From Candidatus Saccharimonadota bacterium (lineage in GTDB: Bacteria; Patescibacteriota; Doudnabacteria; UBA920; O2-02-FULL-48-8), in NCBI GenBank assembly GCA_050259015.1, contig JBLMZV010000017.1, forward strand, positions 1 to 43,940: a stretch of DNA of 43,940 nucleotides, given 5' to 3'. Made by a program: the position numbers and the translations under genes. Position 1 is the first letter of the stretch; every line of letters begins with the position of its first letter. Positions 8,301-18,782 of this stretch are shown here, piece by piece. The notes under the pieces were generated by a model. It saw nothing but the letters and a program-made list of their open reading frames with translations, did not search any database and was not told the DNA's origin.

Positions 8301-9608
8301 ATGTTTCACGTGAAACATATCCTTCATAACCTAAGATTACACCGACTTTTGTTTCTGACCTTCCTGCTGACCGTTCCGTTTCAGACCAGAATCATCTACA
8401 ACAAGCCGCAGGCCCTGATCGGTGACACGGTTTCATATTACCTGGCAATCATGGTATATCTATCGGATCTGCTGTTTGTTTCTGCCTTGTTGTCCTGGTT
8501 ATTTACCGATTTTAACAAAAGTTTCGCAAAATCAAGGGTTTTTTGGCTTTGCTTGCTTGCAGCGGCTTTCCCACTAATATCTGTGTTTCACGTGCAACAA
8601 ATGGGTTTATTCCTTTTTGGATGGCTGAAATGGGTTGAGCTAATGGCCATTATTGTCTATATTTCCTGCAATTTTAACAGAAAATCAGAAATCCTGGGGA
8701 TTTATTGGGTCGTTTTCTTAAGCGGGATCTTCCAAGCCGTTATCGCCATCTTACAGTTTCACGTGCAACATGGTTTGGGTTTGACCTGGCTCGGAGAGTA
8801 TGTTTCACCACTTGGAACCCCAGGTTTAGCTACGATCGATGTTTTGGGCCAAAAAGTTCTACGGGCATATGGAACGTTTTCACATCCCAATGTGCTGGCT
8901 GGATTTTTGACCGTATCCTTTATCGCTGGACTGGACTTGGTTTCACGTGGAACCATCCGTACGAAACTTTTTGTTTCACTTGGGATCCTTACCCTTATCT
9001 TCGGTTTGTTCCTTAGTTTTTCCCGGGCAGCCTGGTTAGCCGCAGCTTTGTCAACGATTGCTTACTTTTACCAGTTCTTGAAAACCAGAAATTATCTGAC
9101 CGCGAAAATTATGACCATCCTGCTCATTGTTTCATGTGGAACAATCTGGCTGGGGTTTCATGACTTCATTGTTTCACGTGCAACGGACCTGAACAATTCC
9201 AAAGCAGTCTCATATCGGACCGATTTTAACGCCCAAGCTGTTACCATCTGGAGGCAATATCCGTTTACCGGTGCAGGACTCAACAACTACGTGCCAGCTT
9301 TGGAAACCATGAAACCCGGTTTGGCCGGGTGGCAGTATCAGCCGCCTCACAATATCTTCCTGTTGCTCGGAGTCGAAACCGGCATCATCGGCTCATTGCT
9401 CTTGCTTGTCCTCGTAGGATTTTTGGTTCGTTTCACGTGGAACCGTAAAACTGAGCATTCATTCCTGGTCCTGACTTGCCTGGCTTCTTTTGTGATTCTG
9501 GGCCTGTTCGACCATTATCTCTTGACCATCCAGCAGGGGATGCTCATGCTCGGATTAATCCTTGGGCTGGCTGCGATTTTGCCGGAGCAGGCGAATGAGG
9601 TAAAATAA
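8301..9608 (+). CDS. O-antigen ligase / Wzy-family polytopic membrane protein
   Basis: At least 10 TM segments, with FSRAAWLAAALS and PPHNIFLLLGVETGIIG (Wzy_C-like). Confidence 0.8.
   Translation: MFHVKHILHNLRLHRLLFLTFLLTVPFQTRIIYNKPQALIGDTVSYYLAIMVYLSDLLFVSALLSWLFTDFNKSFAKSRVFWLCLLAAAFPLISVFHVQQMGLFLFGWLKWVELMAIIVYISCNFNRKSEILGIYWVVFLSGIFQAVIAILQFHVQHGLGLTWLGEYVSPLGTPGLATIDVLGQKVLRAYGTFSHPNVLAGFLTVSFIAGLDLVSRGTIRTKLFVSLGILTLIFGLFLSFSRAAWLAAALSTIAYFYQFLKTRNYLTAKIMTILLIVSCGTIWLGFHDFIVSRATDLNNSKAVSYRTDFNAQAVTIWRQYPFTGAGLNNYVPALETMKPGLAGWQYQPPHNIFLLLGVETGIIGSLLLLVLVGFLVRFTWNRKTEHSFLVLTCLASFVILGLFDHYLLTIQQGMLMLGLILGLAAILPEQANEVK
8303..9443. repeat. intragenic array of the palindrome GTTTCACGTGNAAC
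   Basis: Strong copies start at 8303, 8585, 8756, 8940, 9129, 9171 and 9430. Degenerate copies start at 8802, 8973 and 9155. Confidence 0.9.
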
Positions 9609-14796: not shown

Positions 14797-14823
14797 AAAG
14801 AAAAAATCCGACAATTGTCGGAT
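14797..14823 (-). terminator. terminator of the Leu-Val-Phe-Gly tRNA operon
   Basis: ATCCGACA-ATTG... hairpin followed by a U-run on the minus strand. Confidence 0.6.
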
Positions 14824-14830
14824 CCTTTCT

Positions 14831-14904
14831 TGGAGCGGGTAACGGGAATCGAACCCGTATCTTCTCCATGGCAAGGAGATATTCTACCACTGAACCATAC
14901 CCGC
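14831..14904 (-). tRNA. tRNA-Gly (anticodon GCC), CCA encoded
   Basis: Acceptor GCGGGUA/UACCCGC, loop UUGCCAU, discriminator U73. Confidence 0.9.
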
Positions 14905-14905
14905 A

Positions 14906-14980
14906 TGGTGCCTCGGGTCAGAATCGAACTGACGACGCCAGCCTCTTCAGGGCTGCGCTCTACCACTGAGCTACCGAGGC
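14906..14980 (-). tRNA. tRNA-Phe (anticodon GAA), CCA encoded
   Basis: Acceptor GCCUCGG/CCGAGGC, loop CUGAAGA. Confidence 0.9.
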
Positions 14981-15030
14981 GCGGTAAAGCTACAATATTA
15001 TACCAAATTTCGGAAAGTTGTGAAGTTACC

Positions 15031-15275
15031 TGGTGGACGCTCGCCTGGCTTCGCCAGTGGGTGATGTAGGGACCGGACCTACGGCCTTCTCGGTGTAAAC
15101 CCCGCTTCGCTTCGGCTTCGTGGGGCAGGCGAGACGCTCCCTGTCCTCCGAAGCTTTTATGGTGGGCTCGATAGGATTCGAACCTATGACCTCCTCGGTG
15201 TAAACGAGGCGCTCTAACCAACTGAGCTACGGGCCCATAAAAGCGAAGGAGGATAACCAGCTGAGCTAAGCGTCC
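15031..15275 (-). pseudogene. interrupted tRNA-Val(UAC) shell in four segments, enclosing the intact tRNA-Val
   Basis: Segments 15275-15254, 15139-15130, 15099-15066 and 15041-15031 join to a 77-nt cloverleaf in which all 21 stem pairs are intact. The T loop UCCGGUC is non-canonical. Confidence 0.75.
15160..15236 (-). tRNA. tRNA-Val (anticodon TAC), CCA encoded
   Basis: Acceptor GGGCCCG/CGAGCCC with one C5:A68 mismatch, loop UUUACAC, T loop UUCGAAU. Confidence 0.85.
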
Positions 15276-15310
15276 TTTTGGTGCGCGCTTATTTGGACTT
15301 ATCGATTTTC

Positions 15311-15396
15311 TGGTGCGCGGGAGAGGAGTCGAACCTCCATGCCCTTTCGGGCGCTACCACCTCAAGGTAGTGCGTCTGCCATTTCGCCACCCGCGC
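15311..15396 (-). tRNA. tRNA-Leu (anticodon GAG), CCA encoded
   Basis: Acceptor GCGCGGG/CCCGCGC, loop UUGAGGU, long variable arm. Confidence 0.9.
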
Positions 15397-15413
15397 GCAA
15401 CTTTTACTGATAG

Positions 15414-15442
15414 ATTATACCGAAAAGCGGGGGAGATTTCAA
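15414..15442 (-). promoter_or_regulatory. promoter of the Leu-Val-Phe-Gly tRNA operon (TTGAAA-17-TATAAT)
   Basis: Hexamers at 15442-15437 and 15419-15414 on the minus strand. Confidence 0.7.
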
Positions 15443-15476
15443 TAACCTAAGGTTGCAGGCCGGCAGGTCTTAAGCG

Positions 15477-15505
15477 TTGACAAAAGCCTCATTTTATGAT
15501 AGTAT
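15477..15505 (+). promoter_or_regulatory. promoter TTGACA-17-TAGTAT
   Basis: Consensus -35 and a near-consensus -10. It is divergent from the tRNA operon promoter. Confidence 0.7.
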
Positions 15506-15510
15506 TCATA

Positions 15511-15705
15511 GTTGCGTACCCCGTCCCCGCCTTGCGCGGGGCGGGATAGGCAGCAAAAAGGCTTATCTTAGCCATTTTGCGGCCAAGGCACGCAACCACC
15601 CGTTAATTGCGGGGAGTACATTGAAAAATTAATTAAAGGTCCAACCAAACTTTCTTATTTCTGAATAGGAGAAGGAATCAAGAAGGCAAGGAAGGTTTAT
15701 TATAG
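15511..15705 (+). promoter_or_regulatory. long structured 5' leader (unclassified; riboswitch or attenuator candidate)
   Basis: GUUGCGU (15511-15517) pairs with ACGCAAC (15590-15596). ACCCCG (15518-15523) pairs with CGGGGAGU (15610-15617). An internal hairpin lies at 15553-15580. A pyrimidine tract lies opposite a purine-rich SD region. Confidence 0.45.
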
Positions 15706-16323
15706 ATGACAAGCCGTTTTGAACGGCTTAGCCTGGTAGACCGAAGCTTATTGGTAGGTCTGCTTTCCGCCACGATCGTGTTTCTTTTTCCGAACCTGGC
15801 GGCGGCTCAAGCCAACGATCGACTCGTCTTTGAAATAAACAATATCCAAACCATCAAAATTCCTCATTACAGTGAACTTGCAATAATCAAGAGCGCTGAT
15901 GAGAACCAGGTCACCGACGAGCAGGCAACCGAGCCGGCTTTGGAGGTCGACCCGAACGTTGAGATCCTCAAGAACTACCTTATAAGCAAGAACTCTCCTT
16001 TGGCGGAATATTCCGAACACCTGTTGAGCCAGCCGAACTGGAAGATGATCATTGCTATTTCCCAATCCGAATCCAACATGTGCAAGCGCCAGCTTGGCCA
16101 CAACTGTTGGGGCATCGGCGGCGGCAACTTGCGGAAGTACCCGAGTTTCGCCGAAGGTATCTCTGACGCCAACAACGTCATTTCCAAATACGTGGCTCGC
16201 GGAGCTGACACCCCGGACGAAATGGTCTTACGCTACGTCGCTTGGAACAACCGCAATTGGGTAAAGGCTGCCAATCAGACATTGGGCCAGCTGAACAATC
16301 TGCCGTTGGTAATGCAGAACTAA
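15706..16323 (+). CDS. secreted or membrane-anchored protein with a lysozyme/SLT-like C-terminal domain (paralog 1)
   Basis: N-terminal signal/TM segment, then NSPLAEY...NWKMIIAISQSESNMCKR...NCWGIGG. Confidence 0.65.
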   Translation: MTSRFERLSLVDRSLLVGLLSATIVFLFPNLAAAQANDRLVFEINNIQTIKIPHYSELAIIKSADENQVTDEQATEPALEVDPNVEILKNYLISKNSPLAEYSEHLLSQPNWKMIIAISQSESNMCKRQLGHNCWGIGGGNLRKYPSFAEGISDANNVISKYVARGADTPDEMVLRYVAWNNRNWVKAANQTLGQLNNLPLVMQN

Positions 16324-16324
16324 C

Positions 16325-16352
16325 AAAAGCCCCGGATTAATCCGGGGCTTTT
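16325..16352. terminator. bidirectional terminator
   Basis: AAAAGCCCCGG-ATTAA-TCCGGGGCTTTT. Confidence 0.7.
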
Positions 16353-16366
16353 AAGTTGCCTGTAAT

Positions 16367-16453
16367 TGGTGCCCAGGGAGGGAGTTGAACCCTCAATCCC
16401 TTGCGGGCCCGGGATTTTAAGTCCCGTGCGTATGCCAGTTCCGCCACCTGGGC
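16367..16453 (-). tRNA. tRNA-Leu (anticodon TAA), CCA encoded
   Basis: Acceptor GCCCAGG/CCUGGGC, loop CUUAAAA, long variable arm. Confidence 0.9.
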
Positions 16454-16458
16454 TTAAT

Positions 16459-16532
16459 TGGAGGTCTGGAGCGGAGTTGAACCGCTGTACGGGGTTTTGC
16501 AGACCCCTGCCTAACCGCTCGGCCACCAGACC
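16459..16532 (-). tRNA. tRNA-Cys (anticodon GCA), CCA encoded
   Basis: Acceptor GGUCUGG/CCAGACC, loop CUGCAAA, discriminator U73. Confidence 0.9.
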
Positions 16533-18585: not shown

Positions 18586-18782
18586 AAACTATTTGATTTT
18601 AAGCCGTTCGACGCTGCGACTGCTTAAATCCTTTCGTTTGCCTAAACCAAATTAAGCTTTTAGATTGTACCAAAAACAGAGGCATAAATCAAGGGTAAAA
18701 AAGCTTTCCAAACCCGCCTGAATTTGGTAAAATAAACGGGCAATGGACCGCATTTTAAGGACGTAAAAACCACAAAAAACCT

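Follow-up and report, generated by a model that had tools for sequence, protein, structure and literature searches.

A complete tRNA-Val(UAC) gene lies inside a second, disrupted tRNA-Val(UAC) gene in the genome of an uncultured, ultra-small Candidatus Saccharimonadota bacterium, and this nested locus is best read, from sequence comparison, as the work of a small non-coding replacement cassette that invaded the resident tRNA-Val(UAC) of a Leu-Val-Phe-Gly tRNA cluster, probably twice. The locus occupies positions 15031 to 15275 on the minus strand of contig JBLMZV010000017.1 (assembly GCA_050259015.1), the whole 43,940 nucleotides of which were analysed and are called the window here. The complete gene is referred to below as the inner tRNA or cargo, the disrupted gene around it as the shell, and contigs used for comparison carry L numbers. 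It is quite likely that the shell is unspliced debris and that the inner gene is the functional tRNA.

Four minus-strand pieces (15275-15254, 15139-15130, 15099-15066 and 15041-15031) join to a 77-nt molecule that ARAGORN calls tRNA-Val(tac), with the coordinates and sequence that an earlier, sequence-only reading of the window had given. Direct counting finds 21 of 21 stem pairs in the joined shell to be Watson-Crick, as that reading had claimed, and its remark that the T loop is non-canonical also holds, the loop being TCCGGTC, without U55 and A58. The inner tRNA-Val(tac) at 15236-15160 is intact, is called by ARAGORN and scores 73 bits against Rfam RF00005; its acceptor stem is GGGCCCG/CGAGCCC, its CCA is encoded and the C5:A68 mismatch reported for it is present. 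It sits in a 114-nt insert (insert 1) bounded, as had been proposed, by an imperfect inverted repeat with 19-nt arms that are 84% complementary, and this insert is predicted to fold into a 6-bp plus 7-bp stem closing on the inner tRNA (-45.1 kcal/mol, z = -3.95). All of the inserts are able to fold alone and sit at structural boundaries of the shell. Recovery of the four-segment cloverleaf by covariance-model scoring of 14990-15320, which the sequence-only reading had expected, did not follow: in situ the Rfam tRNA model finds the inner gene alone, because it cannot bridge inserts this large.

The shell, rather than the inner gene, occupies the ancestral place in the cluster. Relatives were reached through the S1 protein gene, 2 kb from the locus (64-83% identity for most loci), and come almost all from metagenome-assembled genomes labelled Candidatus Doudnabacteria, Patescibacteria or Saccharibacteria; the cluster order Leu(GAG)-Val(UAC)-Phe-Gly is kept in these relatives. 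An uninterrupted Val(UAC) stands 1-3 nt after tRNA-Leu(GAG) in L003, L004, L005, L014 and L017, with the acceptor stem of the shell (GGACGCT/AGCGTCC) and its anticodon stem. Since an uninterrupted gene of shell type is found at the same operon site and the inner acceptor stem is different, the shell is the resident gene and the inner tRNA the newcomer. In the printed sequences, shell positions 1-47 and 67-77 equal the uninterrupted tRNA-Val of L014 at 58/58 positions, and segment 1 alone matches relatives at E = 1.7e-6, so that this orthology rules out a chance cloverleaf. The closest relative, identified by the only close homologue of a neighbouring 205-aa protein (83% identity; contigs L071-L080), provides an empty site, reading Leu-AT-intact Val(UAC)-promoter P2-Phe-Gly, and its tRNA-Leu, tRNA-Phe and tRNA-Gly are each 100% identical to those of the window. 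Set against this site, insert 1 falls precisely at the join of GGTTA and GAGCG (A21|G22), with 0 bases lost or duplicated; the insertions are therefore lineage-specific and precise. Of the two accounts entertained in the sequence-only reading, that of a tRNA-Val gene disrupted by an insertion which delivered its own replacement is thus supported by the uninterrupted orthologues, the empty site and the foreign inner acceptor stem.

The features of the locus and its cluster are listed from the upstream end.

15414-15442, minus strand: P1, promoter-like site TTGAAA-17-TATAAT upstream of tRNA-Leu(GAG); 11/12 consensus matches.
15311-15396, minus strand: tRNA-Leu(GAG), which opens the unit; identity of 100% with its counterpart in the closest relative.
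15276-15310, minus strand: Leu-shell spacer, not in relatives; 23-nt filler, a second copy of the Leu 3' end (CGCGCACCA) and AAA.
15254-15275, minus strand: shell segment 1, Val positions 1-22; acceptor 5' strand, D stem 5' strand and D loop to A21; 22/22 identical to the Val of L014 and L004.
15237-15253, minus strand: cassette leader TCCTCCTTCGCTTTTAT; pairs with the trailer.
15160-15236, minus strand: inner tRNA-Val(UAC) with foreign acceptor stem, presumed functional gene; ARAGORN, Rfam.
15140-15159, minus strand: cassette trailer TAAAAGCTTCGGAGGACAGG; insert 1 stops exactly before shell G22.
15130-15139, minus strand: shell segment 2 GAGCGTCTCG; D stem 3' strand, position 26 and anticodon stem 5' strand.
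15100-15129, minus strand: insert 2, a 30-nt GC-rich hairpin CCTGCCCC...GCGAAGCGGGG; P-type termini (CCYGCC...GGCRGG/GCGGG).
15066-15099, minus strand: shell segment 3; runs from the anticodon loop (UAC) and the 3' strand of the anticodon stem through the variable loop to the T arm GTAGG-TCCGGTC-CCTAC.
15057-15065, minus strand: ATCACCCAC, acceptor 3' strand and discriminator of an L006-type tRNA-Val; the L006 Val ends ...CCCTACATCACCCACCA.
15042-15056, minus strand: hairpin TGGCGAAGCCAGGCG; resembles the right flank of L055-type cassettes (..GGCGAAGCGGGCGGG|GAGCG).
15031-15041, minus strand: shell segment 4 AGCGTCCACCA; resident acceptor 3' strand, A73 and CCA; equals positions 67-77 of the L014 Val.
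14997-15024, minus strand: P2, promoter-like site TTCACA-16-TG-TATAAT (extended -10) between the shell and tRNA-Phe; GnTATAAT kept in relatives.
14831-14980, minus strand: tRNA-Phe(GAA) and tRNA-Gly(GCC); both 100% identical to the closest relative.
About 14797-14829: hairpin and T-run terminator after tRNA-Gly.

P1 should drive transcription across the nested locus. The description of the cluster as one operon is correct as to the promoter at 15442-15414 and incomplete in that a second promoter-like site (15024-14997) precedes tRNA-Phe. The spacer before the shell contains a duplication of the last 9 nt of tRNA-Leu (CGCGCACCA, 15319-15311) at 15287-15279, 23 nt downstream, where relatives have a Leu-Val gap of 2-3 nt; this repeat may mark the left edge of an acquired fragment. 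The filler of this spacer has GATAAGTC in common with the Leu-Val spacer of L011.

The 3' part of the shell has a different origin from its ends. The ancestral T arm is AAAGG-TTCGAAT-CCTTT, as in the closest relative (L075) and in L014, whereas the shell has GTAGG-TCCGGTC-CCTAC and then ATCACCCAC, a T arm not of the AAAGG/CCTTT kind but of the kind seen in the L006 allele. A 15-nt string, CCCTACATCACCCAC, equals the 3' end of the L006-type Val allele (...GGTCGTAGGTTCAATCCCTACATCACCCACCA). What follows ATCACCCAC reads TGGCGAAGCCAGGC|GAGCGTC|CACCA and resembles an L055-type right flank (...GGCGAAGCGGGCGGG|GAGCG) joined to resident positions 23-29. The hexamer AGCGTC occurs twice in the resident Val, at 24-29 and at 66-71, and a deletion between these two repeats yields the observed 3' junction. 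The shell from the D-stem 3' strand through ATCACCCAC is thus most plausibly taken as the 3' half left by an earlier, second copy of Val that is itself dead, and the 15042-15056 hairpin as a putative relic of the trailer of the first cassette; the locus as a whole would then probably record two successive D-loop invasions and a deletion between the AGCGTC repeats. The sequence-only reading had divided the shell by three inserts. Its segments hold, and the history it implied is too simple, successive invasions plus a deletion being the better account; its insert 3 does contain a hairpin and is no clean insert, since the first 9 nt (ATCACCCAC) are the 3' end of an L006-type tRNA-Val. The compensatory differences between shell and inner stems to which it drew attention are real and stem from two different alleles, not from selection on a spliced product. 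The joined cloverleaf is perfect because resident acceptor strands were joined to a foreign, internally paired T arm, and a perfect cloverleaf that arises from unrelated pieces is no evidence of such selection.

The window belongs to a recurrent class. At least 13 loci (Val, Ile, Thr, Cys and Ala) show a disrupted gene with an intact tRNA in one of its loops, clamped by the inverted repeat of leader and trailer, and cargo and shell anticodons match wherever both are readable. The leader and trailer that clamp each cargo are complementary to one another and differ in sequence between families, and many inserts have GC-rich P-type termini, CCYGCCCGCC...GGCRGGCGGG. The window shows all the marks by which such a nest is defined: an intact tRNA in a disrupted gene of the same anticodon, a complementary leader and trailer, and precise insertion. 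The termini of its insert 1, TCCTCCTTCGC (starting TCCTCC)...GGAGGACAGG, bear a loose resemblance to those of L070/L059 (CCCGCCTTCGC / CCCGACTTCGC), and insert 2 (CCTGCCCC...GCGGGG) fits the P-type termini. A pattern scan of JGI metagenomes for a D arm cut after GGTTA, with a second D arm within 12-40 nt, gave 26 loci, which then went to spliced alignment. The alignment shows the following clean nests.

L055: Val(UAC), insert 1 of 147 nt; also a 20-nt palindrome at the window's insert 2 site (31|32), the shell being otherwise perfect.
L067 / L047: Val(UAC), insert 1 of 132 nt; also a T-loop hairpin insert.
L048 / L062: Val(CAC), insert 1 of 147 nt.
L058: Thr(GGU), insert 1 of 167 nt.
L061: Ile(GAU), insert 1 of 118 nt.
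L049 family: Ile(GAU), insert 1 of 149 nt; AT-rich, roughly 28-nt inverted flanks.

The frequency of the D-loop site among the scan loci is uninformative, because the pattern itself required that site. A21|G22 was also struck independently of the pattern, namely in L031, in L116 and by a cargo-less hairpin in the outer shell of L048. In L031, reached without the pattern search, an L033-type Val is split at A21|G22 by a different intact Val with the flanks CCTGCCCGCC...GGCAGGCGGG. Likewise found without it are tRNA-Cys nested in the anticodon loop (L031 and L032; L017 and L011) and tRNA-Ile(UAU) nested in L034. A tRNA-Ala(UGC) nested at 35|36 in L067 and a three-deep Ile nest in L063 are not pattern-derived, though both contigs came from the pattern scan. 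The sequence-only reading had stated that neither of its two accounts had been described. The full-text literature searched indeed holds no description of tRNA-in-tRNA nests or such cassettes in bacteria (many subscription papers lay outside its scope, and this is absence of evidence only), while the locus is not unique but one member of a class.

Two further arrangements were noted beside these nests. In L053:408-480, L068:2762-2833 and L045:220-292 (AT-rich), a 22-nt tRNA 5' fragment ending GGTTA precedes an intact tRNA (Thr, Asn and Thr, respectively); the filler after the fragment is AAGCTAAAGCTAAACCCCTGAGC in L053 and L068 and different in L045, with no recognisable 3' shell, and this may be a different phenomenon. 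In L003:9375-9510, a structured spacer of about 115 nt separates an intact Val from a 21-nt remnant (CGAATCCTTTAGCGTCCACCA) of the 3' end of an L014-type Val; the arrangement fits classical integrative 3'-end replacement, but with a very short insert.

Comparison across the nests points to decay of shells and mobility of cassettes. ARAGORN, which was applied to joined shells, proved too permissive for grading decay, and stem pairs and conserved bases were counted directly; the L031_Val and L067_Ala rows of the resulting table are mis-parsed and are disregarded here. Joined shells show 0 stem mismatches in the window, L055 and L061 and 1-2 in L048, L067 and L058; L011, L032 and L049 have lost whole shell halves, and L031 has a destroyed 3' acceptor strand. 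The eight tabulated inner genes have 0-1 mismatches and canonical T loops. L017 and L011 have one Cys insertion in common, and the shell 5' half, still whole in L017, is wrecked in L011, so that the two form a pseudogene series. The cassettes of L055, L067 and L048 agree in all 21 nt of the left terminus, in the right terminus and in the acceptor stem of the cargo (GGGTTTG), and lie in three different shells (GGACGAT, GGACAGC and GGACAAT), one of which is Val(CAC). The cassette is more conserved than its host shells, which indicates mobility. In L048 the cargo anticodon arm equals the shell anticodon arm, and exchange with the shell can, as this identity suggests, retarget the cargo. The window's own tRNA-Cys (16459-16532, minus strand; GGTCTGG...CCAGACC) is the invading inner allele of L017, L011 and L031; no shell fragments are left around it, and L014 has a different resident allele.

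These observations suggest the following mechanism. The cassette consists of a complete tRNA-Val(UAC) between a complementary leader and trailer, and it lies at A21|G22 with no target duplication or base loss. A transcript from P1 would carry Leu, the shell 5' piece, leader, Val, trailer and the shell 3' piece in that order, and RNase P would cut at the inner G1, with 3' trimming to the encoded CCA, as bacterial tRNAs normally mature. The helix of leader and trailer may keep the inner tRNA apart from the homologous pieces of the shell or act as an RNase III site, and the shell pieces would be dead and not rejoined. The cargo-less GC-rich hairpin (insert 2) would have arrived after the two invasions, and the AGCGTC deletion would likewise be later than these. 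The most likely route of spread is DNA recombination of cassette alleles via the conserved D-arm and 3'-half homology, which a break in the target may help; a hairpin-loop-specific transposase, or RNA ligation followed by reverse transcription, are alternative insertion steps. Selection would keep only insertions that bring the same isoacceptor, because small genomes probably hold one gene per anticodon, and once inserted the element could not be lost. More tentatively, as a proposal somewhat likelier to need revision than to stand as worded, we suggest that candidate phyla radiation (CPR) bacteria host selfish non-coding 'disrupt-and-replace' cassettes, in which a hairpin-clamped tRNA enters a same-isoacceptor gene at its D or anticodon loop, takes over that gene's role and becomes indispensable; the cassette would be retargetable by shell conversion and itself invadable, giving Russian-doll loci, the cargo-less palindromes would belong to the same system, and a structure-directed enzyme or an RNA-mediated route would perform the insertion.

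Several points weigh against this interpretation. The two-invasion history leans on sequence resemblance and a 6-nt repeat. With 21/21 Watson-Crick pairs, against the C5:A68 mismatch of the inner gene, the shell is surprisingly tidy for a thrice-interrupted pseudogene, and some other shells are likewise flawless (L055) or almost flawless (L061), which keeps some probability for a spliced product that is maintained. Hairpin inserts reuse structural sites, 31|32 in the window and in L055 and T loop 56|57 in two L067 shells, and this recurrence hints at a structure-directed process. The termini of insert 1 are only loosely like the CCYGCCCGCC family. The three insert sequences have no second copy in the 44-kb window, and GCGAAGC, found 8 times against 8.9 expected, is not enriched there; related insert termini are scattered in other genomes. 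No candidate for an inserting enzyme emerged nearby: Pfam annotation of 39 open reading frames (ORFs) of the window showed no transposase, integrase, reverse transcriptase, homing endonuclease, EndA or RtcB.

The tidiness of the shell bears most directly on the view that it is a functional, multiply interrupted tRNA-Val whose inserts are introns removed by protein-based or other bacterial splicing, so that two tRNA-Val species would be made, the inner one from intron 1. The perfect 21-pair cloverleaf recognised by ARAGORN, the self-folding inserts at structural boundaries, the L055 shell, perfect and with inserts at the same two sites, and the true group I introns that relatives have in the cluster's other tRNA genes all speak for it. 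We nevertheless regard it as very improbable. At no junction, in any register, is there a bulge-helix-bulge (BHB) motif with a 4/4 central helix and both flanking helices, and no match to the group I core (RF00028) appears in 14990-15320 even at E <= 10. The T loop TCCGGTC is without U55 and A58, and another allele supplied the shell T arm and ATCACCCAC, so that the pairing arises from unrelated pieces. The shells of L011, L032, L031 and L049 lose halves or stems and keep intact cargo, an always-matching cargo is needed only if the host gene is killed, and the closest relative manages with a single uninterrupted gene. The archaeal-style interrupted tRNA offered as the second account in the sequence-only reading fails on the same grounds: no BHB motif, the aberrant T loop, a two-allele mosaic, and equivalent shells that decay around intact inner copies. 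Other Rfam families (Plastid-ycf2, HPnc0260 and toga_FSE) gave weak matches, far under thresholds, on the tRNA itself or on the shell D arm. Among the ORFs scanned in this 44-kb part of the genome there was no splicing endonuclease (EndA) or ligase.

Closer to the replacement-cassette reading is the view that cassettes and cargo-less hairpins are non-autonomous elements like miniature inverted-repeat transposable elements (MITEs) or REPINs, moved in trans by an enzyme specific for the loops of hairpins in single-stranded or cruciform DNA; tRNA genes would be hit because their arms form such hairpins. Terminal inverted repeats are present in insert 1, and termini are kept in L055, L067 and L048; more widely, the inverted termini CCYGCCCGCC/GGCRGGCGGG are kept across genomes and cargo types, an exact palindrome (CCTGCCTGCCGGCAGGCAGG) recurs in L010, L055 and 35 IMG/VR stretches, P-type hairpins stand in the S1 leader hairpin loop of several relatives, and precise insertion without target duplication is a habit of HUH or IS110-type elements. 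We consider this version unlikely, though less so than splicing, as no transposase was found, leader and trailer are wholly different between families (AT-rich in L049, L063 and L017), which leaves no single recognition sequence, and there is no common target motif. Cargo matching would require selection or conversion besides, as in the replacement-cassette reading, and the two models differ in the insertion step only. The fit to MITEs themselves is partial, inverted repeats being present and the window showing no target-site duplication against the L075 empty site. A local tandem duplication of tRNA-Val, with deletions, small palindromic insertions and decay that mimic a nest, is highly improbable: tRNA clusters do duplicate and decay, and the 9-nt Leu-end duplication and AGCGTC microhomologies are present, but inner and resident acceptor stems are unrelated, the break at A21|G22 is exact with 0 bases lost against the empty site, the same break point and flank architecture occur in unrelated shells and isoacceptors, and nests are seen at no fewer than 13 loci. 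Least credible of all is an assembly or binning artefact joining Doudnabacteria strains via shared tRNA k-mers. Such genes break short-read assemblies, and L001 and L002 end near the cluster, L001 inside tRNA-Gly; yet the Logan contig L044 from SRR24085919 holds the whole locus, covering window positions 14951-16416 with 2 mismatches, both outside the nested locus. This recovery in a separate contig shows that the locus is not an artefact of that kind; moreover, the junctions lie away from shared k-mers, the inverted flanks are imperfect, and the same architecture is seen in many unrelated datasets.

Other sources for the inserted DNA were considered and set aside. An integrase-type island does not fit a 114-nt insert with no integrase gene and with 5' and 3' fragments both flanking a full tRNA. 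As to a phage origin of the inner tRNA or of the D-loop nests, IMG/VR gave 0 matches for the inner Val and for the nest pattern, the 4 matches there to the D-loop plus terminus pattern were all chance matches in coding DNA, and phage BLAST returned generic tRNA similarity only. TIGR arrays as a source of the palindromes were rejected since their published architecture differs.

Palindromes, introns and endonuclease-like ORFs at other sites bear on the mechanism. The S1 leader has a conserved hairpin (..GTCGCAGCG|TCGAAC..), uninterrupted in the window at 18586-18700 (minus strand) and also present upstream of S1 in L005, L007, L010, L011 and L013; a cargo-less P-type hairpin (starting CCTGCC and ending GGCGGG) stands exactly in its loop in L010, L011, L013 and L007. 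The exact 20-nt palindrome CCTGCCTGCCGGCAGGCAGG (P20) is found in 35 IMG/VR stretches (L085-L119), with up to 6 copies per contig (L105, L112 and L113), and at two bacterial loci (L010:5891; L055:9407 and 6055). At 38/41 of its sites the direct repeat is <=2 nt, and target-site duplication is mostly absent, the 3/41 sites with duplication all lying inside tandem repeats. In L109:2239-2330, a GC-rich viral contig, a tRNA-Met(CAU) has CCTGCCTGCCGGCAGGCAGG in its variable loop and is called by ARAGORN as a 92-nt tRNA, where the palindrome may be tolerated as a long variable arm; L086 holds a truncated version. Group I introns interrupt the tRNA-Phe anticodon loop in two relatives (L010:9378-9660, 72 bits; L024:10575-10860, 68 bits; against RF00028). 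The Val-Phe spacers of L018 (11760-12400) and L011 (~9300-9560, minus strand) contain LAGLIDADG-like and GIY-YIG-like ORFs, respectively, the families being read by eye, and further ORFs follow the intron-containing tRNA-Phe in L010 and L024. In L116:493-1470, the 5' piece of a dead tRNA (positions 1-38, anticodon UUU) carries the 20-nt palindrome at A21|G22; after it come a GIY-YIG-like ORF (by eye) and then a second copy of the tRNA, whose group I intron (86 bits) contains an ORF that reads by eye as HNH-like (CHREIH motif). The small cassettes may have here a counterpart that bears an endonuclease.

The window is core chromosome near the replication origin, with dnaA, dnaN, recF, gyrA, polA, ruvB, ruvC and tyrS and free of mobile-element genes, and the tRNA locus adjoins SET, SPW, a hypothetical protein and S1. 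It is labelled Candidatus Saccharibacteria at NCBI (protein ACM3NH_01255), and the nearest relatives by S1 and tRNA-cluster synteny are mostly labelled Candidatus Doudnabacteria; the organism is a Doudnabacteria-like member of the CPR. The spacers of the cluster in relatives hold repeats of their own. One, upstream of tRNA-Phe/Gly in L004 (9330-9470 and 9600-9700), L014 (9640-9775) and L003 (9510-9642), runs in the order A/T-rich hairpin, GAGGAGC, ATG, second hairpin, GCGACG and looks like a tiny ORF or a structured leader. In L028 (10870-11170 and 11380-11500; also L029), ~100-nt repeats (GGGCCAATCAAGGCTCACTACGTTACGTC...) and a short repeat (TTCACATTGCTKCGCTCGTGAAT) lie in the tRNA-cluster spacers.

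Phages, genomic islands and integrative and conjugative elements integrate into tRNA genes carrying a copy of the displaced 3' part. As in the window, an essential tRNA gene is targeted and its function is restored by the carried tRNA sequence, and, as in the nests, displaced resident fragments stay alongside and pile up over successive events (the L003 remnant; L067 Ala). Unlike these elements, the nests are 114-170 nt, non-coding and without an integrase, carry a complete tRNA rather than a 3' segment, sit at A21|G22 in the D loop or midway along the anticodon loop, and keep resident 5' and 3' fragments on either side of a leader/trailer clamp. Group I introns reside in the same tRNA cluster (relatives' tRNA-Phe) and, like the cassettes, are mobile and precise with no target duplication; the window inserts differ in having no ribozyme core, in being far too short and in lying beyond the anticodon loop, and cassettes need no splicing since a replacement gene is supplied. 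Free-standing homing endonuclease cassettes, such as phage T4 SegB, adjoin tRNA genes, and their homing replaces alleles without nesting. This cluster resembles them in break-and-copy turnover, with GIY-YIG/LAGLIDADG-like ORFs in the L011 and L018 spacers, and L116 has a GIY-YIG-like one between its dead fragment and the new copy, whereas no ORF lies in or near the window inserts. REP/REPIN and MITE-type palindromes and hairpin-loop-targeting insertion sequences are small, non-coding and hairpin-forming. Like the cassettes, the REP/REPIN/MITE elements have conserved inverted termini, are found in loops of structured elements and nest; the cassettes differ in their tRNA cargo, the lack of target duplication, the absence of an identified transposase and the single copy in the window. 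Multi-intron, split and permuted tRNA genes of archaea and red algae are, according to two reviews, processed at BHB motifs (PMC4090602; PMC4033280). The window resembles archaeal interrupted tRNAs in having more than one break per gene, in the D, anticodon and T regions, and resembles the archaeal and red-algal intron systems in that a functional RNA can lie inside an intervening sequence; unlike the archaeal interrupted tRNAs, it is bacterial, with no BHB junction, decaying shells in its class, a cargo that duplicates the host function and no splicing endonuclease among the ORFs scanned.

For annotation, the nests mean that tRNA finders report the inner gene and miss the shell, that shell fragments can be mistaken for extra tRNA genes or introns, and that recurrent GC-rich hairpins flag past invasion sites. 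Precise, duplication-free insertion into loops points to a candidate inserting activity for enzyme discovery. If the class is real, it would provide a bacterial counterpart to models for the origin of split and interrupted archaeal tRNA genes, and invasion would join mutation and ordinary horizontal transfer as a way in which tRNA genes are replaced in reduced CPR genomes. A tiny non-coding element that turns essential by killing and substituting its target would, if the reading is true, constitute a new route of tRNA turnover and a form of 'addictive' selfish DNA.

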